A stretch of 63,268 nt of DNA, filler included. It is 5 parts of 5 records of this genome, joined end to end, with 100 filler letters (N's around TTAATTAATTAA, not from the genome) between each part and the next. Parts side by side here need not be neighbours in the genome. Positions count along the whole stretch, not along the records: positions 1 to 13,493 come from SRR31156797_6283; 4 more parts are not named here. The stretch is one strand, 5' to 3'. Of the stretch, positions 1 to 57,072 are shown piece after piece (position 1 is the stretch's first letter; every line of letters begins with the position of its first letter). Both the position numbers and the translations under genes were made by a program. The notes beneath the pieces were generated by a model. It had not been told where the DNA came from and did not search any database. It worked only from the letters and a program-made list of their open reading frames with translations.

Positions 1-2
1 TA

Positions 3-278
3 GATGATTTTGGAAGTGGATATTCAAACTACAATTATATTTTAAATCTAGATATCGATATTATTAAACTTGATAGTAGTCTAGTAGAAAATATTTATAC
101 TGATCAAGAGTCTTTAGTAATAGTTTCAAATATTGTACGAACTGCAAAAGAGATCGGACTCATTGTTGTAGCTGAAAAAGTAAGTGATGAGCATATTGAG
201 AAGATCTTAACAGTTCATGAGGTAGATTATCTCCAAGGTTTCCATATAGGAAAACCAGCACCTGCAGTTTTGGACTAA
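3..278 (+). CDS. EAL-domain (c-di-GMP phosphodiesterase) protein, C-terminal fragment cut by window start
   Basis: Manual translation [24 protein letters not shown]...VVAEKVS...[11 protein letters not shown], which contains the canonical EAL C-terminal motifs. Confidence 0.9.
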
Positions 279-285
279 GTATCTT

Positions 286-963
286 ATGAAGTTTTCGTTT
301 GTAAGTTTATTTCCAAATCTGATTCAGCCTTATTTTGAAGATTCGATTTTAAAAAGAGCCTGTGAGAAAGAGCTTATACACTTAGAGTTTTTAAATCCAC
401 GGGATTTCACTACAAATAAACATAATAAAGTGGATGATACTCTCTGTGGTGGTGGAGCAGGTCAGCTCATGTTTCCCCAGCCACTTTTTGATATCTTACA
501 AGAGATAAAAAAACATGATCCAAATGCATATATCATCTTTCCACTAGCAGCAGCAAAACCTTTTAAACAAAATGATGCTAAAAGACTAGCTAAAAAAGAG
601 CACCTTGTATTTGTAAGTGGAAGATATGAGGGGATCGATGAGCGAGTCATTGAAACCTTTGCCAATGAAGTATTTAGTATAGGTGATTATATCCTTACAG
701 GTGGGGAACTAGCATCTACTGTGATGAGTGATGCAATTGCAAGAAATATTGACGGAGTCTTAGGAAACAATGCGTCACTTGATGAAGAGAGTTATAACCT
801 CCAAGAAAAGAACAAACTCCAACTCGAAGCACCCTCTTTTACAAAACCTATAAATTTTAACAATTTAAGTGTTCCTTCAGAATTATTAAAGGGAAACCAT
901 GCTAAAATTCGCAACTTTAAATCTAAGCTGTCTAAATACAAAACTAAGTATTTTAGACCATAA
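286..963 (+). CDS. trmD: tRNA (guanine-N1)-methyltransferase
   Basis: [22 protein letters not shown] and [11 protein letters not shown] motifs; lies directly upstream of rplS. Confidence 0.97.
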
Positions 964-1007
964 AATGGGGCACTTTGTAGAGACATACCCCCGAAAAAGG
1001 GAAAAAA

Positions 1008-1364
1008 ATGAAAAATAAATACATTGCAGCGTTTGAATCAGCACAAATAGAAGGGAAAGAGATTCCTCAGTTTAGAGCTGGTGATACATTAAGACTTGGT
1101 GTTGAAATTAAAGAGGGATCAAAAACAAGAGTTCAGAACTTTGAAGGTATTGTTATTGGTCTTAAAGGTGAGGGTATCTCTTCAACTTTTACTATTAGAA
1201 AAATTGGTGCTAATGGTGTTGGTGTTGAGAGAATTTTCCCAATGTATTCTGAAAGTTTAAAATCTATTGAACTATTAAGAAGAGGTGATGTAAGAAGAGC
1301 TAAACTTAACTACCTTAGAGGTCTTAAAGGGAAAGCTGCAAAAATTAAAGAACTTAGAAAATAA
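1008..1364 (+). CDS. rplS: 50S ribosomal protein L19
   Basis: [22 protein letters not shown] and [12 protein letters not shown] motifs. Confidence 0.98.
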
Positions 1365-1383
1365 TTCTTTGATTTTTGAAAAG

Positions 1384-1420
1384 AAAAAAGGTAAGTATCT
1401 TTTGATACTTACCTTTTTTT
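1384..1420 (+). terminator. Rho-independent terminator after rplS
   Basis: Perfect hairpin AAAAAAGGTAAGTATC-TTTT-GATACTTACCTTTTTT followed by a U tract. Confidence 0.9.
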
Positions 1421-1431
1421 ATGTTTAGACA

Positions 1432-2307
1432 ATGCAACTTTTACACTCACCTATCCAAGCTATCCATTTTAAAGAGCACAACTTTTTATTAAAACGTGAT
1501 GATCTACTTGATAGTAACTTCTCAGGAAATAAAGCAAGAAAGCTTCTCTATTTTTTACACAATGATTTTCCAAATATAAATACTCTTATGAGCTATGGAT
1601 CAAACCAATCAAACGCTATGTATTCATTATCAGTACTTGCAAAACTAAAAGGATGGAACTTTATCTATTATGTTGATCATATCCCCTCTTTTTTACAAAA
1701 GAACCCTTTGGGAAACTATAAACATGCTCTTCAAAATGGGATGGAGATAAAGCTCTTAAAAGAGAATGAAACAATAAGTACCATATTTTATGATGTAAAC
1801 TCTACCCTTTTTATAAAAGAGGGAGGAGCTGTAAAAGAAGCAGAATATGGGATCAAAACTTTAGCAGATGAGATAAATGAGTATAAAAAAAACAATAATA
1901 TTCAAAACCTTAAGATATTTTTGCCAAGTGGTACAGGGACAACTGCCCTATTTTTACAAAAACACTTAACAGATGAAGTTCTTACTTGCCCTTGTGTAGG
2001 AGATAGTGAGTATTTAAAAAAACAGTTTTTAGAGCTTGAAGATGATGAATCTTTTCATCCAACTATCCTAAAAACAGATAAAAAATACCATTTTGGAAAA
2101 CTTTATAAAGAAAACTACATTTTATGGAAAGAGATAAAAGAGCTTACAAAGATAGAATTTGATCTTTTATATGATCCTATTGGACTTAGAACTTTTTTTA
2201 CACTAGAGAAAAACCAAGACACCACATACCTTTATATCCATCAAGGTGGAATAAAAGGGAATCAAACCATGTATCAAAGATACTGTTACAAATATTCCAA
2301 TCTTTAG
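1432..2307 (+). CDS. PLP-dependent D-cysteine desulfhydrase / ACC deaminase family protein
   Basis: LKRDDL, SGNKARKL (PLP lysine), SYGSNQSNAM, PSGTGTT and YIHQGG motifs. Confidence 0.88.
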   Translation: MQLLHSPIQAIHFKEHNFLLKRDDLLDSNFSGNKARKLLYFLHNDFPNINTLMSYGSNQSNAMYSLSVLAKLKGWNFIYYVDHIPSFLQKNPLGNYKHALQNGMEIKLLKENETISTIFYDVNSTLFIKEGGAVKEAEYGIKTLADEINEYKKNNNIQNLKIFLPSGTGTTALFLQKHLTDEVLTCPCVGDSEYLKKQFLELEDDESFHPTILKTDKKYHFGKLYKENYILWKEIKELTKIEFDLLYDPIGLRTFFTLEKNQDTTYLYIHQGGIKGNQTMYQRYCYKYSNL

Positions 2308-2417
2308 AAAAATTACAGTTTGGCTACAAGTTATACAGCAAAAACTACTTTTAAGGTTCCATTTTATAGTATGATTCAAAAAAGATTTTTTAAACTAAAA
2401 TATATAAAGAGAATACA

Positions 2418-3878
2418 ATGAGCGAACACAATAATTTACTAGATATTATCATTTTTGGTGGGCATGGTGATCTTGCCTTTAGAAAACTAATGCCAGCACT
2501 GTACCATATATACAATGGGAGTTTTTTACATGAAAACAGTAGAATTATCACGGTTACAAGACGTGATATGAGTAGAGATGATCATCTAACACTTTTAAAA
2601 GAGAAAATGGATGAATTTTTACCCGCTGAATATTATGATGATGAAAAATACCATTTTTTCTCTGAGCATTTAGAAGTAGTAACGGTAGATCTAAACGATA
2701 GTTCTTCTTATCAACCACTTCATGATATGTTAGCCCAGAATCCTGATAGAGAGAGATTCTACTATCTCTCAACTGCACCAGACTTTTTTGGCTCTATTTG
2801 TAAAACTCTATCAGAATTTAGCCTTATCAATAATAACTCAAGAGTTGTTTTAGAAAAACCTATTGGACGAAGTCTTGAAACTTCACGTGAGATCAACAAT
2901 GAAGTATTAAAATATTTTGAAGAGAAACAGATCTATCGAATCGATCATTATCTAGGAAAAGAGACTGTTCAAAATATTATGGCACTTAGATTTTCAAATA
3001 GATTCTTTATGCCTTTATGGGATGAAGGGAATATTGACCATGTACAGATCACTGTTAGTGAGAGTGTAGGAGTTGAGGGTCGTTGGGGGTATTATGATGA
3101 TTATGGAGCATTAAGGGATATGATCCAAAACCATCTTTTACAACTTGTTTGTCTAGTAGCGATGGAGCCACCATGTTCACTTGATGCAGATAGTGTAAGG
3201 GATGAAAAAGTAAAGGTTTTAAAATCTCTTCGGCCAATGAATGAAGATGATATAGAAAATAAAACTGTAAGAGCCCAATATACAGCAGGATCAATTGCAG
3301 GAAAAAGTGTACCAGGATATCGTGAAGGGGAAGGTGTAGAAGAGAGCAATACTGAAACTTTCGCATCAATGAGACTCGATATCCATAACTGGAGATGGAA
3401 AGATGTTCCATTTTATATACGAAGTGGAAAAAGGATGAGTAAAAGAAACTCTGAAATCGTGATCCAATTTAAATCGATCCCTTATTCTATCTTTGCAAAT
3501 AAAGGAAGATGCATCTCAGCAAATAAACTGATCATCTCACTCCAACCAAATGAATCGATCAAACTACAACTTATGAATAAGATCCCAGGGCTTAGTGAAC
3601 AGATGAGATTAAAGCCAGTGGAGCTTGAGCTTAACAATGAGTTTGAAGATGAAAGAAAACCTGAAGCGTATGAACGACTTCTTTTAGATGTAATACGATC
3701 AAATCCTACTCACTTTATGAGACTTGATGAAGTGGAAGCTGCATGGAAATGGGCAGATATTATCTTAGATGGATGGAAAGAAAATCTTGTCAATATGAAA
3801 GAGTACCCAGCTGGAACCGATGGACCAACTGCGTCTATTGCCCTGATTGAAAGAGATGGAAGAAGCTGGCATGAATAA
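2418..3878 (+). CDS. zwf: Glucose-6-phosphate 1-dehydrogenase
   Basis: FGGHGDLAFRKL, EKPIG, RIDHYLGKE, DMIQNHLLQ and PEAYERLL motifs. Confidence 0.97.
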   Translation: MSEHNNLLDIIIFGGHGDLAFRKLMPALYHIYNGSFLHENSRIITVTRRDMSRDDHLTLLKEKMDEFLPAEYYDDEKYHFFSEHLEVVTVDLNDSSSYQPLHDMLAQNPDRERFYYLSTAPDFFGSICKTLSEFSLINNNSRVVLEKPIGRSLETSREINNEVLKYFEEKQIYRIDHYLGKETVQNIMALRFSNRFFMPLWDEGNIDHVQITVSESVGVEGRWGYYDDYGALRDMIQNHLLQLVCLVAMEPPCSLDADSVRDEKVKVLKSLRPMNEDDIENKTVRAQYTAGSIAGKSVPGYREGEGVEESNTETFASMRLDIHNWRWKDVPFYIRSGKRMSKRNSEIVIQFKSIPYSIFANKGRCISANKLIISLQPNESIKLQLMNKIPGLSEQMRLKPVELELNNEFEDERKPEAYERLLLDVIRSNPTHFMRLDEVEAAWKWADIILDGWKENLVNMKEYPAGTDGPTASIALIERDGRSWHE

Positions 3879-4566
3879 AAATGTATCATTTTCTCAGTTT
3901 GATAAAAAAGAGAAACTCTATGAAGAGCTTACTAATACTATAGTATGTAAACTTGAAAAGGCTATAGAAGAAAATGACTTAGCACTTATTGCACTCTCAG
4001 GAGGCTCTACGCCAAAGCCTCTTTTTGAAAAGCTGAGCCATATGACACTTCCTTGGGAAAAAATCTATATCACTTTAGTGGATGAAAGATGGGTTCCCAA
4101 TACCCATGATGATAGTAATGAAAAACTAGTAAAAGATTTTCTTATTCAAAATAAAGCGATAAAAGCAAACTTCATCCCTTTAAAACTTGATTTACCTACC
4201 CCTTTTGATGCAGTAAAAGAGTGTGGGAAACAGTTTGATACTTTTAAACAAAATATTGATGTAGTGATCTTAGGAATGGGTGGAGATGCCCATACAGCTT
4301 CTTTTTTTCCAAAAGATGAAAACCTACACAATGCTCTTACCACAAAAGACACCTGTGCAGCAACTATCCCAACCGATGCACCTCATCAAAGAATGACATT
4401 TTCACTCTCAAAACTTTTAAGTGCAAAAGATATCTTTTTACATATTGAGGGAAAAAATAAACTTGATGTGTATCAAAAAGCAAGTCAAGAAGGAAAAATA
4501 GAAGATATGCCAATACGAGCCTTTTTATTCAATGAAAAACCACTAAAGGTCTACTATGCCGATTAA
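3871..4566 (+). CDS. pgl: 6-phosphogluconolactonase
   Basis: ALSGGSTP, VDERWVP and LGMGGDAHTASFFP motifs; ATG at 3871 overlaps the end of zwf. Confidence 0.95.
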   Translation: MNKNVSFSQFDKKEKLYEELTNTIVCKLEKAIEENDLALIALSGGSTPKPLFEKLSHMTLPWEKIYITLVDERWVPNTHDDSNEKLVKDFLIQNKAIKANFIPLKLDLPTPFDAVKECGKQFDTFKQNIDVVILGMGGDAHTASFFPKDENLHNALTTKDTCAATIPTDAPHQRMTFSLSKLLSAKDIFLHIEGKNKLDVYQKASQEGKIEDMPIRAFLFNEKPLKVYYAD

Positions 4567-6385
4567 ACAAATAACAGACGTAACAAATGATATTATCAAA
4601 AGAAGTACTACTACACGTTCATTATATCTTCAAAGAATCGAGGAAGCGTGTGAATATGAAGTGAATAGAAAAGCTCTAGGGTGTAGTAATCTAGCCCATG
4701 GAGTAGCACCACTTGATGAGAAAGAGAAAAAAGAACTGCTTGAATTTAAAAGAGAAAATGTCGCTATCGTCTCAGCGTATAATGATATGCTCTCAGCCCA
4801 TGAGCCTTATAAAAGTTATCCTCCTCTTATAAAACGTGCACTAAATCTCCAAGGGGTAAGTGCCCAATTTGCAGGAGGTGTTCCTGCTATGTGTGATGGG
4901 ATCACCCAATCACAACCAGGGATGGAGCTAAGCCTTTTTAGTCGTGATAATATAGCAAGTGGAACTGCTATTGCTTTGAGTCATAATATGTTTGATGGAG
5001 CACTTTATCTTGGAGTGTGTGATAAGATCGTCCCTGGACTTCTAATAGGAGCTCTAAAGTTTGGTCATCTTCCATCTATATTTATCCCAGCTGGGCCAAT
5101 GCCAAGTGGAATTAGTAATAGTGTAAAAGCAAAAGTAAGACAAGAGTATACACAAGGGAAAGTAGACTTTGCAACACTCCTTGAAACTGAAGCAAAATCA
5201 TATCATGCTAGTGGAACTTGTACTTTTTATGGAACGGCAAACTCAAATCAAATGCTTATGGAAATAATGGGTCTGCATCTTCCTGGAAGCTCTTTTGTTC
5301 CTACAAATACTCCTTTAAGAGATGCTTTAACAGAAGAAGCCTCAGTACAACTTATTAAGTTAATGAAAAATAGTGGAAACTTTACTCCAATAGGAAAAAT
5401 GCTTGATGAAAAAAGTTTTGTTAATGCTATCATTGGACTTTTAGCAACAGGAGGATCAACTAACCACACGATCCACTTAATCGCAATGGCAAGAGCTGCT
5501 GGTATCACACTTACTTGGGATGACTTTGATAGACTTTCCGCTGTAATCCCACTCCTATGTAAAATGTATCCAAATGGTTCAGCAGATGTAAACCACTTTC
5601 ATCAAGCTGGTGGAATGGGTGTCGTTATAAAAGAGCTTTTAGAAAACGATCTTATTCATAATGATGTCAATACTATCTTAGGAGAAGGACTAGAGAAATA
5701 TATAAGTGAACCAATTCTTGAAAAAAATAAATTAATTTTCAAAGATATAGAAAATGGTTCTAAAAATTCTGATATAATAGGAACTGTTCAGTCACCATTT
5801 AGTGATGAGGGTGGAGTAAAGCTTCTTAGTGGAAACCTTGGGCGATCAATTGTGAAAACCTCAGCACTCAAAGAGAGCAATAGAATCATAGAAGCTCCAG
5901 CACTTGTATTTGAATCACAAGATGAGTTACAAAAAGCCTTTAAAGAGGGAAAACTCAACCAAGATTTTATAGCAGTAGTAAGATATCAAGGGCCAGCAGC
6001 CAATGGGATGCCAGAACTTCATGGGCTTATGAAACCACTTGGAGCTTTACAAGATGAGGGCTATAAAGTGGCGATCGTCACAGATGGACGAATGTCAGGA
6101 GCAAGTGGAAAAGTTCCAAGTGCTATTCACCTAACACCTGAAGCCCTAAGTGGCGGAATGATCGCAAAAGTACAAGATGGAGATATGATCAAACTTGATT
6201 GTAATAGTGGAGAATTATCACTTTTAGTTGATAATTCTACTTTAGAAAAAAGAGAGATTTCAAAACCTGATCTATCATCAAATAGACATGGAATGGGAAG
6301 AGAGCTGTTTAGTATGATGAGAAACTATGTAAATGGTGCCGAAGATGGAGCCTGTACATTTCAAAAAGTAGGAGAAGAGAGATGA
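4556..6385 (+). CDS. edd: Phosphogluconate dehydratase
   Basis: CSNLAHG, AYNDMLSAHEP, GVPAMCDG, NGMPELH and TDGRMSGASGKVP motifs. Confidence 0.97.
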   Translation: MPIKQITDVTNDIIKRSTTTRSLYLQRIEEACEYEVNRKALGCSNLAHGVAPLDEKEKKELLEFKRENVAIVSAYNDMLSAHEPYKSYPPLIKRALNLQGVSAQFAGGVPAMCDGITQSQPGMELSLFSRDNIASGTAIALSHNMFDGALYLGVCDKIVPGLLIGALKFGHLPSIFIPAGPMPSGISNSVKAKVRQEYTQGKVDFATLLETEAKSYHASGTCTFYGTANSNQMLMEIMGLHLPGSSFVPTNTPLRDALTEEASVQLIKLMKNSGNFTPIGKMLDEKSFVNAIIGLLATGGSTNHTIHLIAMARAAGITLTWDDFDRLSAVIPLLCKMYPNGSADVNHFHQAGGMGVVIKELLENDLIHNDVNTILGEGLEKYISEPILEKNKLIFKDIENGSKNSDIIGTVQSPFSDEGGVKLLSGNLGRSIVKTSALKESNRIIEAPALVFESQDELQKAFKEGKLNQDFIAVVRYQGPAANGMPELHGLMKPLGALQDEGYKVAIVTDGRMSGASGKVPSAIHLTPEALSGGMIAKVQDGDMIKLDCNSGELSLLVDNSTLEKREISKPDLSSNRHGMGRELFSMMRNYVNGAEDGACTFQKVGEER

Positions 6386-7026
6386 CACCAAGAAAAGTAT
6401 TAAATGTATCACCAATTATCCCAGTAGTAGCAATAGAAGACCCAGAAAAAGCTGTAGATCTTGCAAATGCTCTACTTGAGGGTGGAATCAATATTATTGA
6501 AGTCACTTTAAGAACACCAAATGCGATCCAAGCAATAGAAAATATCGCTAAAAATGTTCCTGATATGGTATTAGGAGCTGGAACTGTGATCAATCCTGAG
6601 CAATATGATCTTGCGATCAATGCGGGAGTACAATTTGTAATTAGCCCAGGGTTTACTTACAAACTTCTAGAACATGCTGCAAAAGACGATATCCCACTTA
6701 TACCTGGAGTTGCAAGTGCTAGTGAAATTATGTATGGGATAGATTTTGGACTAGATACATTTAAACTTTTCCCTGCAAATGTTGTAGGTGGTGTAAGTGC
6801 TGTAAAATCTTTTGCTGGACCATTTTCAGATGTGGTATTTTGCCCAACTGGTGGAGTAAATGAAGATAATATCCAAGACTACCTCAAACTTTCAAATGTA
6901 GCATGTGTAGGTGGTACTTGGTTAGCTTCTAAAAAACTTATTGAAAATGGAGATTTTGATCTTATCAAAAGAAACTGCAAGGAAGCAGTTGCAAGTATTA
7001 CAAGAGAGAAGCCTTTACATTTATAA
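6382..7026 (+). CDS. eda: KDPG/KHG aldolase
   Basis: IEVTLRTP, GAGTV, KLFPA and FCPTGGV motifs. Confidence 0.96.
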   Translation: MTPRKVLNVSPIIPVVAIEDPEKAVDLANALLEGGINIIEVTLRTPNAIQAIENIAKNVPDMVLGAGTVINPEQYDLAINAGVQFVISPGFTYKLLEHAAKDDIPLIPGVASASEIMYGIDFGLDTFKLFPANVVGGVSAVKSFAGPFSDVVFCPTGGVNEDNIQDYLKLSNVACVGGTWLASKKLIENGDFDLIKRNCKEAVASITREKPLHL

Positions 7027-7038
7027 AGGCTTTGTATA

Positions 7039-8424
7039 TTAGATAGAAGCTAACCAATCTTTAAAAGCTTCTACTTGCTCGCTTGTTCTTTTGGTACTTG
7101 TACCACCAAAAGAATCTCTAGCATTCATAGAGTTTCTAAGATCTAAGCACTCTAAAATATCCTCATCGATATCTTTCAAAGTCTCATTTGAAGCTCTAAT
7201 CTCTTCAATATTTAATTCACTTACATCTTTATGTAAAGAATTTGCATGAGCTACCACATCTTTAGTGATATAATATGCCGTTCTAAATGGGATATCTCTT
7301 TTTTGTACTAGATAATCAGCTAGATCTGTAGCAGTTAAATGCCCTACTTTACAAGCCTGCTCCATTCTTTCACTTTGGATAATAAGTGTCTGCATCACTG
7401 AATTTAATATCTCAATACTTATCTCACAATTTACCACAGAATCAAATACACCCTCTTTATCCTCTTGGGTATCTTTATTATAAGCAAGCGGTAAACCTTT
7501 CATCACTGTAAGAAGTCCCATAAGATTTCCATAGGCTCGTCCAGTCTTTCCTCGAAGAAGCTCAGGTACATCAGGGTTTTTCTTTTGTGGCATGATAGAG
7601 CTTGTCGTCGCATACTCATCACTCATCTTTACAAATCCAAACTCATAACTAGACCACAAGATTAGTTCCTCAGAGATTCTACTAATATGCATCATCGTTG
7701 TAGAGATATTGTATAAGATATCTAAAGCAAAGTCACGATTACTACTCGTATCAAGTGCACAAGGTGTCGGAGCAGAAAACCCTAAAAGTTCACTTGTCTT
7801 AAATCTGTCAATTTGATGAGGAGTACCAGCTAGTGCAGCACTTCCAAGTGGAGAATAGTCATTTCTACTTATTGCGTCTTCAAATCGCTCATAATCTCTT
7901 TTAAACATATTAGCATATGCCAACATATGAAATCCAAAATTGATAGGCTGAGCATGTTGTAAGTGTGTCATCCCAGGGATCAAAGTCTCAGTATGCTTAG
8001 AAGCGATATCTACAAAAGTACTTACAAGCTTTTTAAGCTGATCTTTTAGACTGATTGACTTCTCTTTTACATAGAGTGTAAAATCTGTAGCTACCTGATC
8101 ATTACGACTTCTAGCTGTATGAAGTCTTCCACCAGCATCACCAATATATTCCGTAAGCTTACTCTCGATCGCCATATGCACATCTTCATGCTCTATTTTC
8201 CACTCGAACTCACCCGATTCGATCTCACCCTTTATTCGTAAAAGTCCGCTTTCTATCTTTTCTTGATCTTCAATAGAGATGATCCCTTGAAGAGCGAGCA
8301 TCTTAGAGTGGGCAATACTCCCTTGAATATCTTGAGCATATAGCTCTTTATCAAACATCACCGAAGCATTGAACTGATCTAAAAGCTTGGCATTTGTATT
8401 TTTTAAAATCTGATCTTGTGACAT
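7039..8424 (-). CDS. argH: Argininosuccinate lyase
   Basis: [30 protein letters not shown] and [10 protein letters not shown] motifs. Confidence 0.97.
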
Positions 8425-8590
8425 AAAATATCCTATATAAATTGTTGGTGTGATTATAACATGTTAGGGATAAATAGAAAAATGAAAGGAAAATTTTACA
8501 AAAAATATTTTGTGACAGGAATTTTGACACTTTTTTGATAGAATAAATAAAACAGTTTTTATATCTAAAAAACCTAACAAAGGATAGATC

Positions 8591-8806
8591 ATGATAGAGA
8601 TGGTACCTATCAACAGTGAAAATATAAAATCACTTGGATTTGATAAATCAACAAATTATCTTTATATTATATTTGAAGATGATGATATGGAGTATTTATA
8701 TAAAAATGTACAAATGGAAACTTTTATAGAACTGCTTTTTAGTCAATCTAAAAGTCAATATCTAGAAGAAAATATTTTTAATAGATGTGAGAAGATTGCA
8801 GTGTAG
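8591..8806 (+). CDS. KTSC-domain small protein
   Basis: 71 aa with MVPINSENIKSLGFD...LYIIF...YLYKNV...SQSKSQY, the KTSC pattern; AAGGA RBS upstream. Confidence 0.75.
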   Translation: MIEMVPINSENIKSLGFDKSTNYLYIIFEDDDMEYLYKNVQMETFIELLFSQSKSQYLEENIFNRCEKIAV

Positions 8807-8966
8807 TATAGAAAATAAATCAACTAAGTGAGCAAATTATTTGATAAAAAACTGCACATATGTCTTACATTGTTATATCTATATTATTTAAATTAACAAA
8901 ATCATTTATATTTCAAGGATAAAAATCAGAATGAATGTAAAAAAAATTCTGTCCATTTTATATAAG

Positions 8967-9020
8967 TGGTGCGACCGGCGAGATTTGAACTCGCACATCC
9001 GAAGACACTCCCCCCCTCAA
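8967..9020 (-). pseudogene. 3' half of disrupted host tRNA-Leu(GAG) (attR-like end)
   Basis: Minus strand reads TTGAGGG-GGGAG-TGTCTTCGGATGT-GCGAG TTCAAAT CTCGC-CGGTCGC-ACCA: anticodon loop, long variable arm, T arm and CCA, with no D arm upstream. Confidence 0.9.
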
Positions 9021-9029
9021 AACTGTGTT

Positions 9030-9166
9030 TTACATAACTTATTTTTTGAAATTATTTTACAAAACCCTTTATTTAAAGACTTTACAGGAGTTACACCATC
9101 CCTTTGAATACATCAAAAAGGTAATATAAGTTACATAACTTTTTACATAATCTTTTAGTTATGTAA
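9030..9166. repeat. TTACATAACT motif cluster at the island left end (putative integrase arm-type sites)
   Basis: Copies at 9030, 9131 and 9143 (TTACATAATC), plus an inverted copy AGTTATGTAA at 9157. Confidence 0.65.
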
Positions 9167-11374
9167 AAATAGATTCATTTTATCAGATGTTTTCACCTCT
9201 TTATAGCCCATTTGTTTATACCCTTTCATACGCTTTGTAAAGCTAGATCTAAGCATAGGTGTAAGCTCATCTACAAAGTCAATTGCTAAACATTTTTGAC
9301 CACGTCTTCCGATACGTCCTAGATATTGAACTATACGACCAGAGAATGAAATAGGCATGGTTAGAACAATAGTATCTAAATGTGAAAAATCTATTCCTTC
9401 TCCAATATAACTACTTGTAGAGAGAATAACATTGGCAGTCTGTGATTCCTCTAAAGCTTGTCTTTGAATTTTTGTAGGCATACCGCCATGAAGAAGTGTA
9501 GATTTTATATTTTTTGTATCCAATAGATGATATAAAATATTCAAGTGTTCAATCCTATCACTTAGTATCAAAATGTTTCTATCTTTAATCTTTTCAATTT
9601 CAGAAATGATAAGATTATTTCTATCGTAATCCTCAACAAGTTCATTTAGAATTAATGCAAAATCATCTTGTAGTGCTTCAAACTCAGTTTTTATTGTGAT
9701 TAGTTCATGAATTTTTTCAACTTGTTGTTTTTCTTCATAGGCTATATCTCCACACTGCATAAACATAATTGGATGCATTCCATCTTTTCGTTTAGGAGTA
9801 GCACTAAGACCTACTACATATTTACCTCTAAATCTCTTTAATGGCACTTCAAATGAAACAGCTGGAATATGGTGCACTTCATCAATAATAATTTGAGAAT
9901 ACTCTTCAATAAGTTCAGGTCTGTTTTTGAGTGACTGCAGAGTTGCAATATCTATTTTAGATGTTAGCTTTTTCTTTCCTTTACCAAGTTTACCTATCTC
10001 TTTTATATTTATATCAAAATACTCAGATAATCTTTCAGCCCATTGATCAAGTAAAGTGGTTTTATGTATCAAAATAAGTGTATTCACTCTTCTTTTAGCA
10101 ATAATCGCTGAAGCAATAGCTGTTTTTCCAAATCCAGGAGGTGCAATAAGAAGTGAATAATCTTGTTTAACCATTTTATTGAATGCACTTTTTTGCTCAT
10201 CTCTAAGCTCTACAGTAAAGTTTGGTTTATCTATCTTTTTGATGATTCTTTTATCTTCAATAAATAGATTTGCATTATTTTTAGAAAATAGTTGTTTAAT
10301 TTGCCCAATTAATCCTCTTGGTAAGATAATATATCTTTCATTCATATTATACAAAGAGATTATTCTTGGTGTGTTAAAAGTAGACTTTCGAAGGTTTTGT
10401 CGTATAAAAAACTCTGGATTAGCGAATGATGCTAATCTTTGAATAGTATGTAAAAGAGACTTGGATAGTTCAAGTTTTTCTATGTACAAGGCATCAAATA
10501 AAACGGCTTTAGTATTTTGAGGGAATTTAAGTGGTATTTTTCTTTTAATCTCCCATGGCATTAATGACTCTTCATCTGCACCATTTGAAATAATATTTTC
10601 TCTGATAACTATACTTAACTGATATTGTGATAGCTTTTTAGCCTCTTTTAAAACTTTCCACTGATCATTAGATGGCTGCATTGTATCAATATCTATAAAA
10701 ATAGTTTTATTTTCACTTCTTGATCTAAAATGAAGTGGTAGAGCTACAAGATTTCCAAGTGCATCAGGTGCTACAAAATCTTGATTTGGAAACATCCTAT
10801 CATAACTTCCCATATCAATACCATCACTTATATCCATAGCTTTTGTTACAAGTATATCACCCAGTTTTCTTGCATCACTTGCCCTGACTAGGCTTTCAAA
10901 GAAAAACCATATATGAATGCCATTGCCAGATTTTGATATTTCAAATAACGGATTTAAGTGCAATTCATCACAAATCTTTTTAATAGATCTAGCATCATCA
11001 ATAAAACTTTGTTTATCAAGATCAAGTACAAGAAACTTTGCCATTGTTTGGTTTACAACTGCATAGGTTCCAAGTCTTACCTTACCCTCTAAATGCCTTT
11101 GAATAATATCATCACTAACTGGGATATAATCCGTACCTCTAAATGTATAAGCATCTGGTGAATATCCTTTTTTGGTTCCCTCTTTATTAATCCAATATGT
11201 TGCATACACATCTTCTCTACCAACGAATAAAGACTTAAACAAGCCTATCTTTTGAGATTTTGTAAAAGGTGATAGTCTTTGAATAAGCTTTTTGGTTTCA
11301 ATTATCTCATGTTCAATGTTTTGTTTTTGAGATTCTAGGTAGTTTAGTTTATTATAGAGGTCTTGTATTTGCAT
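9155..11374 (-). CDS. TOTE-type archaeo-eukaryotic primase domain fused to an SF2 (ResIII/DEAD-like) helicase
   Basis: N-terminal LFVGREDVYA, LVLDLD, EISKSGNGIHIWFFF, YDRMFPNQD and GNLVALPL motifs; C-terminal APPGFGKT, DEVHH, SAT and QYLGRIGR helicase motifs. Confidence 0.8.
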   Translation of the reverse strand: MQIQDLYNKLNYLESQKQNIEHEIIETKKLIQRLSPFTKSQKIGLFKSLFVGREDVYATYWINKEGTKKGYSPDAYTFRGTDYIPVSDDIIQRHLEGKVRLGTYAVVNQTMAKFLVLDLDKQSFIDDARSIKKICDELHLNPLFEISKSGNGIHIWFFFESLVRASDARKLGDILVTKAMDISDGIDMGSYDRMFPNQDFVAPDALGNLVALPLHFRSRSENKTIFIDIDTMQPSNDQWKVLKEAKKLSQYQLSIVIRENIISNGADEESLMPWEIKRKIPLKFPQNTKAVLFDALYIEKLELSKSLLHTIQRLASFANPEFFIRQNLRKSTFNTPRIISLYNMNERYIILPRGLIGQIKQLFSKNNANLFIEDKRIIKKIDKPNFTVELRDEQKSAFNKMVKQDYSLLIAPPGFGKTAIASAIIAKRRVNTLILIHKTTLLDQWAERLSEYFDINIKEIGKLGKGKKKLTSKIDIATLQSLKNRPELIEEYSQIIIDEVHHIPAVSFEVPLKRFRGKYVVGLSATPKRKDGMHPIMFMQCGDIAYEEKQQVEKIHELITIKTEFEALQDDFALILNELVEDYDRNNLIISEIEKIKDRNILILSDRIEHLNILYHLLDTKNIKSTLLHGGMPTKIQRQALEESQTANVILSTSSYIGEGIDFSHLDTIVLTMPISFSGRIVQYLGRIGRRGQKCLAIDFVDELTPMLRSSFTKRMKGYKQMGYKEVKTSDKMNLFLHN

Positions 11375-11379
11375 GATAT

Positions 11380-12360
11380 TTAAAGACTGTTAATCTCAAT
11401 TTCAAGTTTTTTCAATATTTCAATTATCTCTTCAAACTCTAATTTCTTATCAAATATCATATGCTCCATTGCTTTATAGTCTTTTTTAAGCTCTTGAAGG
11501 CGATACTCTTCTGGAATTAATTTAAAAGTGCCAACTTTAGCAGTATCATAATTAGCCCAATTTACAGGGTAAAACTTCTTTTTAAAATCAACCACTTTTT
11601 CTAAAAGCTGAATTTCTTCAAAAGCATTATCTTTGACATCTGATTTCGCCATAATAGCTAAATCATAGTAGTGTCTTGAATATCTAAGTGGCATAGGTTT
11701 TGACTCATCTCTATGAACCTCTTGATGTAGAATTGTTGCTTTCTCCCAAAATGTTCTGTGTGCTACTATTGCATTAACACTACATTTTGATTTATCAAAA
11801 AGTTGTGGGAAGTATTCTGATGCATAAGAACTTATCTCATAAGTATCTGATGGCAACCAAGCAGCTAAAGGACCGATTTCTAATAAAATTTGTGGTCTTA
11901 GATATTGGTCATCAAAGGCAGCCGGATAATTTATATTGATATTATGTTCATCATCTTCATTTATTTCACAACTACAAAACGGTGCTAATATTTCTGATAT
12001 TACTGGTAATAGAAATTCTTTAATATATGTTTTAGCACTTTCATTGACTGTCTTATTATATTTATCTTGTTTATTTTTACTTCTTTTATCATTTGGATCT
12101 TCTCTTGATACAAGGTTCCAATCAAGTATAAGATCAATATCTTCTGAAAATCTTCCAATAAGATCAAATACTTTAGAAAGTGATGTTCCACCTTTAAACA
12201 TCAAAATATTGCTTAATCTCTCATCGTTAAATATCTTATCTAATGCCCAAACAACCCAAAAGTCTTTTTCAATGATTGCATTAGTAGTATGCATCATTCT
12301 TGCTGTTTCACTAAATAGCTCTTTTCTTTGCTTAGTTGATAAATTAGCTACCTTATCCAT
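11380..12360 (-). CDS. AbiEii/AbiGii (DUF1814) nucleotidyltransferase toxin, type IV TA
   Basis: IEKDFWV, FKGGTSLSK, RFSEDIDL, RTFWEK and SRHYYDL motifs. Confidence 0.9.
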   Translation of the reverse strand: MDKVANLSTKQRKELFSETARMMHTTNAIIEKDFWVVWALDKIFNDERLSNILMFKGGTSLSKVFDLIGRFSEDIDLILDWNLVSREDPNDKRSKNKQDKYNKTVNESAKTYIKEFLLPVISEILAPFCSCEINEDDEHNININYPAAFDDQYLRPQILLEIGPLAAWLPSDTYEISSYASEYFPQLFDKSKCSVNAIVAHRTFWEKATILHQEVHRDESKPMPLRYSRHYYDLAIMAKSDVKDNAFEEIQLLEKVVDFKKKFYPVNWANYDTAKVGTFKLIPEEYRLQELKKDYKAMEHMIFDKKLEFEEIIEILKKLEIEINSL

Positions 12361-12958
12361 TTTTACAAACCTCTTTTATTGTTTCATAAATCCAAACGGT
12401 TGATGTTTTTGTATCTTTTAAAATTTTCTCATACATATTATTGTCAATTTGATCTCTTATTTTTTTAATGACTTTATCATCAATATTTTCTTTGCCTAAT
12501 GTTTTAAGTGCTTGAACAATTAAGGAGCTCTCTTTGTATTTAAAACCTATGTTTTTTAATGCAGATTTTTTAAATTCAATTACACTGCCATCATTGAGTT
12601 TATATTTTTTATTTGGACCATCACTATAATAGATATAAGAAGCTGGAATTTGAGTTGATAAGCCTAATAAGTTTAATGCAGTATCTCCACTCACTTCAAT
12701 TCGCCAATTAAATTTTCTAGCATACGCAAGTGCCACTTGTTCAATATCAGGGCTTAGCTCTTTTTTTAGCAGTTCACTATATTTTGGATAATCATATATT
12801 CCACGAGCCACTCTTCGTATCTTTTTACTTTTAGTTAGATCTGACAACACACTATCGGCTTCTTGTCTTGTAAACTTACCAAGTAAATCACTGGATGAGA
12901 ATGCCCACCCCCTCTTGTGACCAGCTATAAAGTAAAACACCTTTTCATAAAGCTTCAT
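12353..12958 (-). CDS. DUF6088 / AbiEi-like antitoxin and transcriptional regulator
   Basis: N-terminal wHTH-like region, IRRVARGIYDYP and ALNLLGLSTQIP motifs; overlaps the toxin start. Confidence 0.82.
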   Translation of the reverse strand: MKLYEKVFYFIAGHKRGWAFSSSDLLGKFTRQEADSVLSDLTKSKKIRRVARGIYDYPKYSELLKKELSPDIEQVALAYARKFNWRIEVSGDTALNLLGLSTQIPASYIYYSDGPNKKYKLNDGSVIEFKKSALKNIGFKYKESSLIVQALKTLGKENIDDKVIKKIRDQIDNNMYEKILKDTKTSTVWIYETIKEVCKNG

Positions 12959-12981
12959 AAGACCTCTATACTTTTTATTTT

Positions 12982-13009
12982 TCCAGAAAAAAGTATAACG
13001 TTTTCTGGA
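12982..13009 (-). promoter_or_regulatory. Putative AbiE autoregulatory operator overlapping a -10 box
   Basis: Inverted repeat TCCAGAAAA-N10-TTTTCTGGA with minus-strand TATACT (12992-12997) in the spacer, 23 bp upstream of the antitoxin ATG. Confidence 0.6.
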
Positions 13010-13107
13010 TTTATAATTCCTTTTGTAGCATAATAATATATCAAATCATAAGCTCTCTTTAGAAATAAATATAGATAAAACTCTTACTATAATGAGTATT
13101 TATTAAA

Positions 13108-13129
13108 TTACATAACTTTTAACATAACC
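13108..13129. repeat. Tandem TTACATAAC motif at the island right end
   Basis: TTACATAACTTTTAACATAACC is 20/22 identical to 9131-9152 and has the same 12-bp tandem spacing. Confidence 0.7.
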
Positions 13130-13208
13130 ATATTTTTTGAGTTTAACGTGTTAAACGAAAAAGTTTTTGTAAAATATATATAAAGTAAGTATTTAAGGTA
13201 TTTGTAGA

Positions 13209-13292
13209 TGGTGCGCTAGAAAAGATTTGAACTTTCACTCCGTTAAGAACGAGCCCCTCAAGCCCGCGTGTCTACCATTCCACCACTAGCGC
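13209..13292 (-). tRNA. tRNA-Leu(GAG), complete, island-borne
   Basis: GCGCTAG TG GTG GAATGGTAGA CAC G CGGGC TTGAGGG GCTCG TTCTTAACGGAGT GAAAG TTCAAAT CTTTT CTAGCGC A CCA. All four stems pair; long variable arm, A73 and encoded CCA; 84 nt. Confidence 0.93.
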
Positions 13293-13353
13293 ATTTTAGT
13301 TATATTTTATATATTTAAGTAATAATATATTACTCACAGCCTAATTTTTTCGG

Positions 13354-13392
13354 CCCTCAAGATAGCGTGTCTACCAATTCCACCATGGTCGC
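13354..13392 (-). pseudogene. 5' half of disrupted host tRNA-Leu(GAG) (attL-like end)
   Basis: Minus strand GCGACCA TG GTGGAATTGGTAGACAC G CTATC TTGAGGG, then non-tRNA sequence; GCGACC pairs with GGTCGC of the 8967-9020 fragment. Confidence 0.9.
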
Positions 13393-13408
13393 GTAATTGA
13401 AGAGTGAA

Positions 13409-13414
13409 ATTATA
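13409..13414 (-). promoter_or_regulatory. sigma70 -10 box of the host tRNA-Leu promoter
   Basis: Perfect TATAAT on the minus strand 16 nt upstream of the tRNA 5' half, with AT-rich upstream DNA. Confidence 0.7.
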
Positions 13415-13493
13415 GAAAATTTTAGCTGTAGGTTTCATTAAATTAGATAGCACTACTATTTTATGTAGTCTAATCTATTAAAAACTCTTAATT

Positions 13494-13593
13494 NNNNNNN
13501 NNNNNNNNNNNNNNNNNNNNNNNNNNNNNNNNNNNNNTTAATTAATTAANNNNNNNNNNNNNNNNNNNNNNNNNNNNNNNNNNNNNNNNNNNN
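13494..13593. other. Artificial contig spacer
   Basis: N44-TTAATTAATTAA-N44. Confidence 0.99.
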
Positions 13594-13812
13594 AATGGTT
13601 TCCATTTTACGAATTGGGAAATATAGCACTACTGCTTTTTTAACCCATTCATTAATTTGCCAGCCACCTTGAATAGGTTCAGCTACTCTTAATTGTCCAT
13701 CATCAAGCAATTGAATAACCTGCTCAATTGCTTCAATATTTTCCGGTTGATGAATTTCTGATTGATTGTCCCACAGATGATTAATCTGTGACTTTAATTG
13801 CTCAGTGTTCAT
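13594..13812 (-). CDS. dapD: Tetrahydrodipicolinate N-succinyltransferase, N-terminal fragment
   Basis: LLDDGQLRVAEP...WQINEWVKKAVVLYFPI; truncated at the contig end. Confidence 0.9.
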
Positions 13813-34002: not shown

Positions 34003-34102
34003 NNNNNNNNNNNNNNNNNNNNNNNNNNNNNNNNNNNNNNNNNNNNTTAATTAATTAANNNNNNNNNNNNNNNNNNNNNNNNNNNNNNNNNNNNNNNNNN
34101 NN
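34003..34102. other. Artificial contig spacer
   Basis: N run containing TTAATTAATTAA. Confidence 0.99.
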
Positions 34103-45885: not shown

Positions 45886-45985
45886 NNNNNNNNNNNNNNN
45901 NNNNNNNNNNNNNNNNNNNNNNNNNNNNNTTAATTAATTAANNNNNNNNNNNNNNNNNNNNNNNNNNNNNNNNNNNNNNNNNNNN
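45886..45985. other. Artificial contig spacer
   Basis: N run containing TTAATTAATTAA. Confidence 0.99.
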
Positions 45986-56972: not shown

Positions 56973-57072
56973 NNNNNNNNNNNNNNNNNNNNNNNNNNNN
57001 NNNNNNNNNNNNNNNNTTAATTAATTAANNNNNNNNNNNNNNNNNNNNNNNNNNNNNNNNNNNNNNNNNNNN
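56973..57072. other. Artificial contig spacer
   Basis: N run containing TTAATTAATTAA. Confidence 0.99.

Follow-up and report, generated by a model that had tools for sequence, protein, structure and literature searches.

The DNA analysed here is a window of 63,268 nt, by which we mean the whole stretch, a pseudomolecule in which contigs are chained through N44-TTAATTAATTAA-N44 linkers. The minus strand of its first contig, contig A, carries in this order the 5' half of a tRNA-Leu(GAG) gene, a 61-nt spacer, a complete tRNA-Leu(GAG) gene, the genes for an AbiEi-type antitoxin, an AbiEii toxin and a PrimPol (archaeo-eukaryotic primase, AEP) fused to a superfamily 2 (SF2) helicase, and finally the 3' half of a tRNA-Leu(GAG) gene. 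The sequence between the two halves, referred to as the cassette, spans 9021-13353 (4333 nt), and its G+C content is 0.29-0.31 as compared with 0.36-0.38 on the argH side. This arrangement is probably the product of an insertion into the anticodon loop of a host tRNA gene by an element that brought a tRNA of its own.

The cassette is bounded by two pieces of tRNA on the minus strand. The 5' half, or attL (13354-13392), covers tRNA positions 1-38, its last seven nucleotides (13360-13354) being the anticodon loop TTGAGGG. The other boundary, attR (8967-9020), starts with the same loop (9020-9014) and continues with a decayed host 3' remnant (9013-8967), so that, read from 9020 to 8967, it consists of TTGAGGG, a variable arm, a T arm, the 3' strand of an acceptor stem and ACCA. 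An initial annotation of this DNA had proposed both halves and their shared loop, and all of these positions hold when the minus strand is read. The 5' half is identical at 39/39 positions to the intact tRNA-Leu(GAG) of the related genome G068 (locus L115), and at 37/39 to the one in G004. For the 3' half, the identity to the corresponding part of the intact genes in G066-G069 is 86-88%. The initial annotation had also paired the acceptor strands of the two halves with each other; they do pair at 6/7 positions, but position 7 is a mismatch, A7.C66. At pair 6:67, G004 has G-C where C-G is found here, and this compensated difference links the two halves as parts of one gene. Judged by these sequence comparisons, the two halves are a real split gene, far beyond what chance would give.

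No tRNA was called at either junction by ARAGORN or Rfam, where only the T arm of the 3' remnant scores. The nucleotides that follow the 5' half (13353-13293) read as not tRNA-like and hold no tRNA call, in keeping with the initial proposal that the host gene was not rebuilt. TTGAGGG alone is common to attL, attR, the intact tRNAs and the attP-like junctions of two metagenome contigs, L150 and L151, which are described below. Upstream of the 5' half, a promoter-like site, ATGAAA-18-TATAAT (13409-13438, minus strand), obtained the top score of our scan (10/12). Its surroundings are similar to the sequence that precedes tRNA-Leu(GAG) in G003 and G002, with 76% identity over 88 nt including the half.

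The complete tRNA-Leu(GAG) of the element (13209-13292, minus strand) has an acceptor stem GCGCTAG/CTAGCGC, a discriminator A73 and a long variable arm. ARAGORN reported it, as Leu(gag), as the one tRNA in the whole window, and its score against Rfam RF00005 is 48.2 bits (E 2.2e-8), the gathering score being 29. Both programs therefore confirm that a complete gene lies 61 nt inside the junction, downstream of the TATAAT box, as had been claimed. Its acceptor stem is unlike that of the host halves and occurs in none of the 31 relatives of G001 that were searched, G001 being the genome of the relative that is 97% identical to part of the window. The possibility had been raised that relatives carry this tRNA as their native gene, which none of the 31 does. 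The closest matches among them reach 94% and cover positions 7-70 only, and the sole sequenced match that extends to position 1 is from G186 (88% over positions 1-69, acceptor GCGATCG). When the element tRNA is compared with the commonest native allele of the host's relatives, the D and anticodon arms are the same, and the changes in the acceptor, T and variable arms are paired. By its sequence, the element tRNA is a sound tRNA drawn from the pool of the family.

This tRNA is probably now the working copy in the host. CUU and CUC account for 39% of the Leu codons in the five flanking host genes, in which CUY is the largest Leu codon class. Within the family, the Arcobacteraceae, tRNA-Leu(GAG) is near universal and mostly matched once: a pattern spanning the D arm to the anticodon loop found it in 119/184 genomes, and 4/5 sampled genomes that the pattern missed also have it. 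Searches of the complete genome G005, which carries a related element, gave only two halves and the tRNA-Leu(GAG) of the element. It could instead be that the element tRNA is no replacement, with another tRNA-Leu(GAG), or tRNA-Leu(UAG), covering the CUN codons, and with the element copy serving another end, such as escape from defence or toxin systems that target tRNAs, or supplying codons needed by the cargo. Such a tRNA-Leu(UAG) is present in relatives. AbiEii, whose relatives reportedly act on tRNAs, is part of the cargo. Counter-defence has been raised as a possible selective force on tRNAs of this kind in part of the work on actinophages (PMC10865867). We nevertheless hold this to be improbable, given the usual single match per family genome, the outcome of the searches in G005 and the size of the CUY class; moreover, the anticodon of the element tRNA equals that of the split gene in 12/12 genomes with the same layout.

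These 12 genomes were found with the same pattern, which sets the counts as lower bounds. Sixteen of the 119 matching genomes have more than one match, and in 12/184 two or three same-strand matches lie within 150 nt, 61-145 nt apart (G002, G005, G057, G096, G104, G112, G123, G124, G126, G150, G151 and G181). The upstream copy in all 12 breaks off with TTGAGGG; next come a spacer of ~23-55 nt and a full tRNA-Leu(GAG), whose acceptor stem is unlike that of the truncated copy and whose anticodon is always that of the split gene. At least five classes of spacer can be told apart, and one of them stands behind two different host halves (G002, G124 and G126), which implies that the module of spacer and tRNA travels. 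The initial annotation had suggested a search of Campylobacterota for split halves flanking an internal isoacceptor; the same layout is thus present in 12 of the 184 Arcobacteraceae genomes, and in four of them the element is bounded.

These four fully bounded elements measure 16-48 kb, carry a tyrosine integrase beside the 3' half and have halves that pair perfectly. First, the element of G005 (Arcobacter sp. 15-2), of ~48 kb, includes type III restriction-modification genes, a TrwB/TraG coupling protein and a tyrosine integrase. Approximately 70 nt after the integrase gene come TTGAGGG and the missing 3' half, followed by the native tRNA-Gly, tRNA-Arg and dnaG, and when its halves are joined, a perfect tRNA-Leu(gag) of 84 nt results. 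Second, the element of G150 (16.4 kb) carries AbiE, a type I restriction-modification system and an integrase 53% identical to that of G005. Third, the elements of G096 and G151 (20.3 kb each) encode integrases with 41% identity to the G005 enzyme. As in G005, the host 3' half that matches comes after the integrase in G150, G096 and G151. An empty site exists in G149, where the tRNA is intact and the left flank is 98.5% identical to that of G150 (201 nt) and 100% identical to that of G151 (142 nt); it is the empty counterpart of these two loci, which are occupied by two different elements. No phage genes were seen in the scanned open reading frames (ORFs) of these part-annotated elements, whose contents are restriction-modification genes, AbiE, a coupling protein and several genes without a family match. 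The description of the window's element as a non-phage island agrees with this, its cargo being AbiEi, AbiEii and PrimPol-helicase, with no phage genes seen.

Other arrangements were met at the same tRNA. G166 has a classical, restoring element (L133), with a full gene, an element of 12.5 kb and a repeat spanning the D loop through to the 3' end. The first 350 nt of L131, from G151, read in the orientation of the tRNA, include a tandemly duplicated 71-nt unit made of loop, spacer and the 5' half of the element tRNA, which precedes the full element tRNA. A stacked double insertion was considered there and rejected, since the three consecutive loop-bearing pieces come with one element body and one attR, that is, with a duplicated 71-nt unit; this unit may have been left by a second insertion, into the tRNA of the element, that later collapsed. 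G112 (L128 and L180) shows two truncated 5' halves followed by a tRNA cut after the T arm, whose 3' end lies 23 kb away; by its sequence, the locus is compound and makes use of two sublocations within one tRNA, a T-loop insertion being involved as well. A matching 3' half was not found within 39.9 kb in G104.

Taken together, we consider it likely that the window holds an integrase-less cassette inserted into the anticodon loop of tRNA-Leu, whose own tRNA replaces that of the host. Site-specific recombination within TTGAGGG would have placed the cassette in a chromosomal tRNA-Leu(GAG) gene. Because its att site would share the loop alone with the tRNA, the host gene would have been left as two dead halves. 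The element tRNA, placed downstream of the intact host promoter, would be expressed and take over the decoding of CUU and CUC, and the host would come to depend on it. Since the cassette has arms with GTTATGTAA repeats but no integrase, its insertion would most likely have been driven by an integrase supplied in trans. The cassette would be one of a guild of elements in the Arcobacteraceae that share this strategy and this tRNA, and whose autonomous members have an integrase beside attR. The core of the initial annotation, namely, insertion at a 7-nt loop without rebuilding and with an element-borne replacement, is supported in this respect by the intact orthologues, by the 12 genomes, by the four bounded elements with their integrases and by the empty site of G149.

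Several observations weigh against this explanation, and they concern the join of the halves, the end of the contig, the flanks of the cassette and the integrase. First, a plain in-silico join of the halves is reported by ARAGORN as 'tRNA-?(Ser|Leu)(ga)' with a 6-nt loop. The joining of the halves had been put forward as a check on their origin, and it succeeded in part: the halves match intact tRNA-Leu(GAG) genes of the family, but the join itself is not a clean tRNA. Its anticodon arm is defective because the 3' remnant reads GGGGAG where intact relatives have GGTAG; the remnant has further decayed in that C66 stands opposite A7 and in that its variable arm is shorter. After this decay, a precise excision would no longer give back a sound tRNA.

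Second, contig A ends at 13493, only 100 nt past the 5' half, and its last 110 nt depend on a 28-nt overlap. The 5' half is, in addition, a repeat common to other populations in the sample, with a depth in the bin of 2736 as compared with ~210; the Logan assembly breaks within it, and several contigs carry variants of it. These features would be accounted for by an artefact of assembly or binning, in which the 5' half and the 100 nt upstream of it come from another population and were joined through the shared tRNA sequence. We find such an artefact very hard to reconcile with the following results. A 13,383-nt Logan contig, from an independent assembly of the source run, equals window positions 8500-13383 with 0 differences and has the attL junction (13354) and 30 nt of the 5' half in its interior. 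A 138-nt Logan unitig that is identical to 13356-13493 completes the half at the same depth (214.5, against 209.5 for the long contig), whereas the other carriers of the 5' half, among those listed, have depths of 5.7, 15, 82, 387 and 588 and 2-3 mismatches each. The same architecture occurs, moreover, in complete genomes. A misassembly at the junction, of which the initial annotation had warned, is therefore unlikely, the zero differences across attL and the matching unitig depth both speaking for a sound contig. What follows contig A is an artificial linker (13494-13593, without strand; N44-TTAATTAATTAA-N44), across which neighbours are not real. The same applies to gene adjacency across the linkers at 34003-34102, 45886-45985 and 56973-57072, and a listed ORF at 13546-13812 that runs into the first linker is the cut N-terminal part of a dapD-like gene.

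Third, the flanks of the cassette are without a counterpart. The segment on the argH side of attR (8572-8966, without strand), which holds a gene for a KTSC-domain protein (8591-8806, plus strand), is syntenic with no relative. L001, from the 97%-identical relative, can be aligned with positions 1-8571 of the window and diverges at 8571/8572, upstream of argH, and its assembly, G001, is without the rest of 8572-13493 except for one stretch, 67% identical, that matches the helicase gene. An empty site in the form of an intact tRNA-Leu(GAG) beside KTSC/argH had been anticipated and was not found: from 600 stretches, of which 533 encode argH relatives, the best 80 argH loci were compared, and 0/80 have a tRNA-Leu or KTSC gene beside argH. 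No flank of the window recurs at the native tRNA-Leu loci in relatives. On this alignment, 8571/8572 may be the edge of a larger variable region.

These flanks bear on another explanation, by which a larger island (8572-13493 and beyond) was transferred with the tRNA already split, so that the halves would stem from a former host. It would fit with the absence of KTSC, tRNA halves and AbiE genes past the divergence point of the relative, with the argH loci, and with the disagreement between tRNA alleles and flanks that is seen in relatives. Yet the promoter region of the 5' half is like that of the native loci in G002 and G003, and G001 is an incomplete assembly of 1.8 Mb whose contig ends 90 nt past the divergence. 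We thus regard a larger island as unlikely; it would alter which host was hit and leave the mechanism unchanged.

The disagreement between alleles and flanks was observed at a conserved locus of tRNA-Leu(GAG). The flanks of G133 (L175) and G120 (L169) are 81-84% identical, and their tRNAs 78%. The tRNA-Leu(GAG) genes of G134 (L168), G120, G140 (L170) and G123 (L171) are, for their part, 100% identical within flanks of 63-78% identity; the G004 locus (L081) was also compared. This discord, recorded in few genomes, suggests replacement of the gene by foreign, element-borne copies.

Fourth, no integrase accompanies the cassette. None was found by Pfam in its three ORFs or, by tblastn with the integrase of G005, in the 63-kb window, and a hidden Markov model of four related integrases found 0 among 173 ORFs of at least 80 aa from the window, L150 and L151. 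The cassette is thus flanked by attL and attR without recombinase or transfer genes. An element combining the arms of the window with an integrase was found in 0 of the 184 family genomes and in 0 viral contigs; the integrase-bearing elements of the family target the same loop, and none of them has these arm sequences. A further point on the same side, taken up below, is that a close relative of the cassette has no tRNA.

The arms themselves are well delimited. Beside attL, a proximal Y arm of 61 nt (13293-13353, minus strand) is AT-rich and not tRNA-like; it contains TATAAC and TAAAAT immediately before the element tRNA, and over its first ~27 nt it is similar to the Y arms found in L150 and L151. 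Beyond the element tRNA follow the distal Y arm and the upstream region of AbiE (12959-13208, minus strand), conserved in L150 and L151, with a TTACATAACTT motif at 13108-13118. Beside attR, the X arm (9021-9154, minus strand) contains repeats of TTACATAAC / GTTATGTAA, the former being the latter on the other strand, at 9030-9040 and 9131-9141, and another copy lies outside the arm, over the helicase stop (9156-9166). The GTTATGTAA motif has 7 matches in the window as compared with 1.9 expected, and 4/7 are at the two cassette ends. These repeats are candidate arm-type sites for an integrase that would be supplied in trans.

A metagenome scan with 26 nt of the attR-side arm retrieved the two contigs L150 and L151. 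In L150, the cassette, including all three genes and the arm, is present with 91% identity across 4101 nt. Downstream, it closes with the X arm, TTGAGGG and a 3' half that is intact and belongs to another host allele (acceptor strand CGATCGC). Its upstream end has no tRNA half and shows instead an attP-like junction, made of a second X arm of ~150 nt, TTGAGGG and an arm like the one beside attL in the window; the X arm is 85-91% conserved at the two junctions. The attP-like junction lies behind a Gabija GajB cassette. This neighbouring cassette (L150 3-1811 and 2051-2722) encodes a GajB helicase (PADLOC 1.1e-216) and a 223-aa protein without a family match, and, like the AbiE/PrimPol cassette, terminates in the ~150-nt arm. 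In L151, another AbiE pair is preceded by a shorter form of the attP-like junction. On this contig (L151 3-788), genes for a Mutator-family (IS256-like) transposase, a rhodanese and a DUF302 protein interrupt a seemingly truncated PrimPol-helicase after the AbiE pair.

ARAGORN found no tRNA gene in L150, its Y arm included, so that the tRNA is an optional component of cassettes of this kind. In comparison with L151, the tRNA of the window and a short region upstream of it look like an insert within the arm. Presumably, an array would need one tRNA copy, in the cassette beside attL. Units of the window type are, on these alignments, integrase-less cassettes with conserved arms that are stacked at the tRNA. 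A circular plasmid form was also considered and rejected. Landfill contigs from two runs join ~13035 to 9014 via ~340 unlike letters, and this join recurs in L150, between adjacent cassettes with a common X arm, so that the landfill runs are no evidence for a circle.

From its arms and gene content, the cassette was most likely moved by an integrase in trans, or else is a fixed remnant. The second of these, in which a once-autonomous element lost its integrase and most of its body by internal deletion while selection kept the tRNA, is a possibility that we hold with some doubt. It is favoured by the bounded relatives, all of which have the integrase directly beside attR, where here the helicase gene ends 134 nt from attR. 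The decayed 3' remnant also suggests an old insertion, and the searches for an autonomous element with the same arms, as described above, point in the same direction. However, L150 has the same integrase-less unit and a ~150-nt X arm (91%) with a different host allele and an attP-like junction, and the X arm also ends the unrelated Gabija cassette. Conserved arms on different cargos favour a mobilisable module over products of chance deletion. In addition, the arms of the integrase-bearing classes look unrelated to those of the window when the sequences, rather than scanned motifs, are compared.

As for the genes of the cassette, the AbiEi-type antitoxin (DUF6088, 201 aa; 12353-12958, minus strand) matches Pfam PF19570 (1.9e-34) and PADLOC AbiEi (1.8e-61), and the AbiEii nucleotidyltransferase toxin (326 aa; 11380-12360, minus strand) matches Pfam PF08843 (6.7e-34) and PADLOC AbiEii (6e-103). 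The two genes, a type IV toxin-antitoxin or abortive-infection pair, are adjacent, with an 8-nt overlap at 12353-12360. An inverted repeat upstream of the AbiEi gene, GTTTAAC-N2-GTTAAAC (13141-13156), is kept in L150 and L151 and is a candidate operator of the pair.

The third gene encodes the PrimPol-SF2 helicase fusion (739 aa; 9155-11374, minus strand), recognised by both Pfam (AEP-TOTE 5.5e-68, ResIII 2e-22, Helicase_C 2.5e-12) and PADLOC (PrimPol 3.3e-67). TOTE stands for TPR, OB, TBP, effector (PMC12458937). Membership in TOTE was rejected, as the other TOTE parts are absent from the three cassette ORFs, and the Pfam name is a domain label only. Homologues of ~710 aa with 40-45% identity are present in 163/184 Arcobacteraceae genomes, which is why this family looks like a core gene of the Arcobacteraceae. 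Copies with 62-74% identity occur in ~13 genomes, and copies with ~72% nucleotide identity on six Arcobacter or Aliarcobacter plasmids of 133-238 kb. Many of the chromosomal matches are flagged with one in-frame stop. Loci L137-L148 come into this comparison of homologues. A role as the replicase of a small plasmid was discarded in view of these 163 genomes and of the large size of the plasmids.

Comparison with known systems places the element among several of them. Tyrosine integrases that act at the anticodon loop reportedly carry, as a rule, the displaced part of the tRNA and rebuild the gene with it. Tycheposons, of the tRNA-restoring kind, form arrays at tRNA genes and leave degenerate remnants without integrase, according to part of the report that describes them (10.1101/2020.12.28.424599). 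The window's element resembles these classical islands in its crossover in or near the anticodon loop, in the stacking into arrays and in the existence of forms without integrase. It differs in that their attP carries the displaced part of the tRNA, with a partial repeat at the far end, whereas here the 7-nt loop alone is shared, a whole separate gene is brought in, and no chimeric tRNA stands at attL. Other elements to be compared are the cis-mobilizable elements (CIMEs), which are att-flanked derivatives of conjugative elements without an integrase. The cassette is like these in its attL and attR flanks, in its lack of recombination or transfer genes and in its tandem position with other elements at the site, as in L150; it is unlike them in that no partner element with a matching integrase was found among the 184 genomes and the viral contigs.

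One of the closest precedents is the tRNA-dependent lysogeny of actinophages, in which an integration that does not rebuild the gene, combined with an element-borne isoacceptor, has been defined and proven (PMC10865867; Guerrero-Bustamante and Hatfull, mBio 2024). In both cases, the att site overlaps the host tRNA, and no tRNA is rebuilt because the common core is small, at ~10 bp in the actinophages and 7 nt in the window. The actinophages are temperate, have their own tyrosine integrase, use tRNA-Lys(TTT) and others as targets, and their need for the phage tRNA was shown experimentally (PMC10865867). The window's element, in contrast, is not a phage, has no integrase, carries its tRNA directly beside attL and resides in a Campylobacterota host. 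Hence, of the traits of tRNA-dependent integration, overlap with a tRNA, a short core and an own tRNA are found in the window, and an own integrase and a temperate phage are not; a tyrosine integrase is found in the relatives G005, G150, G096 and G151.

Compensation by an element tRNA had been thought, in the initial annotation, to be known from mycobacteriophages only. This was too narrow: prophage Lj965 is cited as another case of a replacement tRNA in part of PMC10865867, and for Pasteurellaceae conjugative elements of the ICEPmu1/ICEMh1 type compensation by a replacement tRNA-Leu is stated in PMC6028734 (Front Microbiol 2018), although a passage of PMC6861422 (Front Microbiol 2019) reads the same kind of junctions as one functional and one partial tRNA copy. 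Like the window's element, those of the ICEPmu1/ICEMh1 type are not phages, have the anticodon loop of a tRNA-Leu gene as their insertion point and bear an intact tRNA-Leu at one of their ends (PMC6028734). Their tRNA-Leu is another one (UUG codon), their repeat has 13 nt, and they are large and carry an integrase, a relaxase and resistance cargo, as described in parts of these reports (PMC6028734, PMC6861422). The window's element, in contrast, has the GAG isoacceptor, measures 4.3 kb and has neither conjugation genes nor an integrase by Pfam in its cassette ORFs; its relative in G005 has both a TrwB/TraG coupling protein and an integrase. A search of the literature at title and abstract level returned no report of such a tRNA replacement in Arcobacter or Campylobacterota, and one may exist.

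The principle is thus already published, for actinophages and Pasteurellaceae elements, and the finding, which is real, adds no new principle. What is new is the phylum, the target tRNA, the frequency (12/184, a lower bound) and the diversity of elements at one 7-nt site, together with the defence cargo, the integrase-less cassettes with full arms in arrays, and a decay of the host remnant that would lock the element tRNA in place. The combination of truncated 5' half, short spacer and full isoacceptor provides a signature with which such elements can be searched for. In annotation, a tRNA gene that adjoins a tRNA fragment should not be assumed to be native.

The strategy of splitting and replacing a tRNA is therefore not confined to actinophages, but recurs in non-phage defence islands and conjugative elements of another phylum. 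Integrase-less defence cassettes with full arms would be a route for shuffling anti-phage genes at one tRNA, and the decayed host remnant suggests a ratchet that fixes the element, or at least its tRNA, in the genome. More tentatively, the single tRNA-Leu(GAG) gene may be a shared landing pad in the Arcobacteraceae for unrelated-looking elements that insert at its 7-nt loop, each with a tRNA-Leu(GAG) of its own, where the halves decay, as in the window, the cell becomes locked to the element tRNA and foreign alleles come to replace a gene that is heavily used and normally present once. If so, the guild that uses this landing pad would include small integrase-less defence cassettes with full arms, stacking into integron-like arrays, and lock-in would explain why alleles of tRNA-Leu(GAG) disagree with their conserved flanks.

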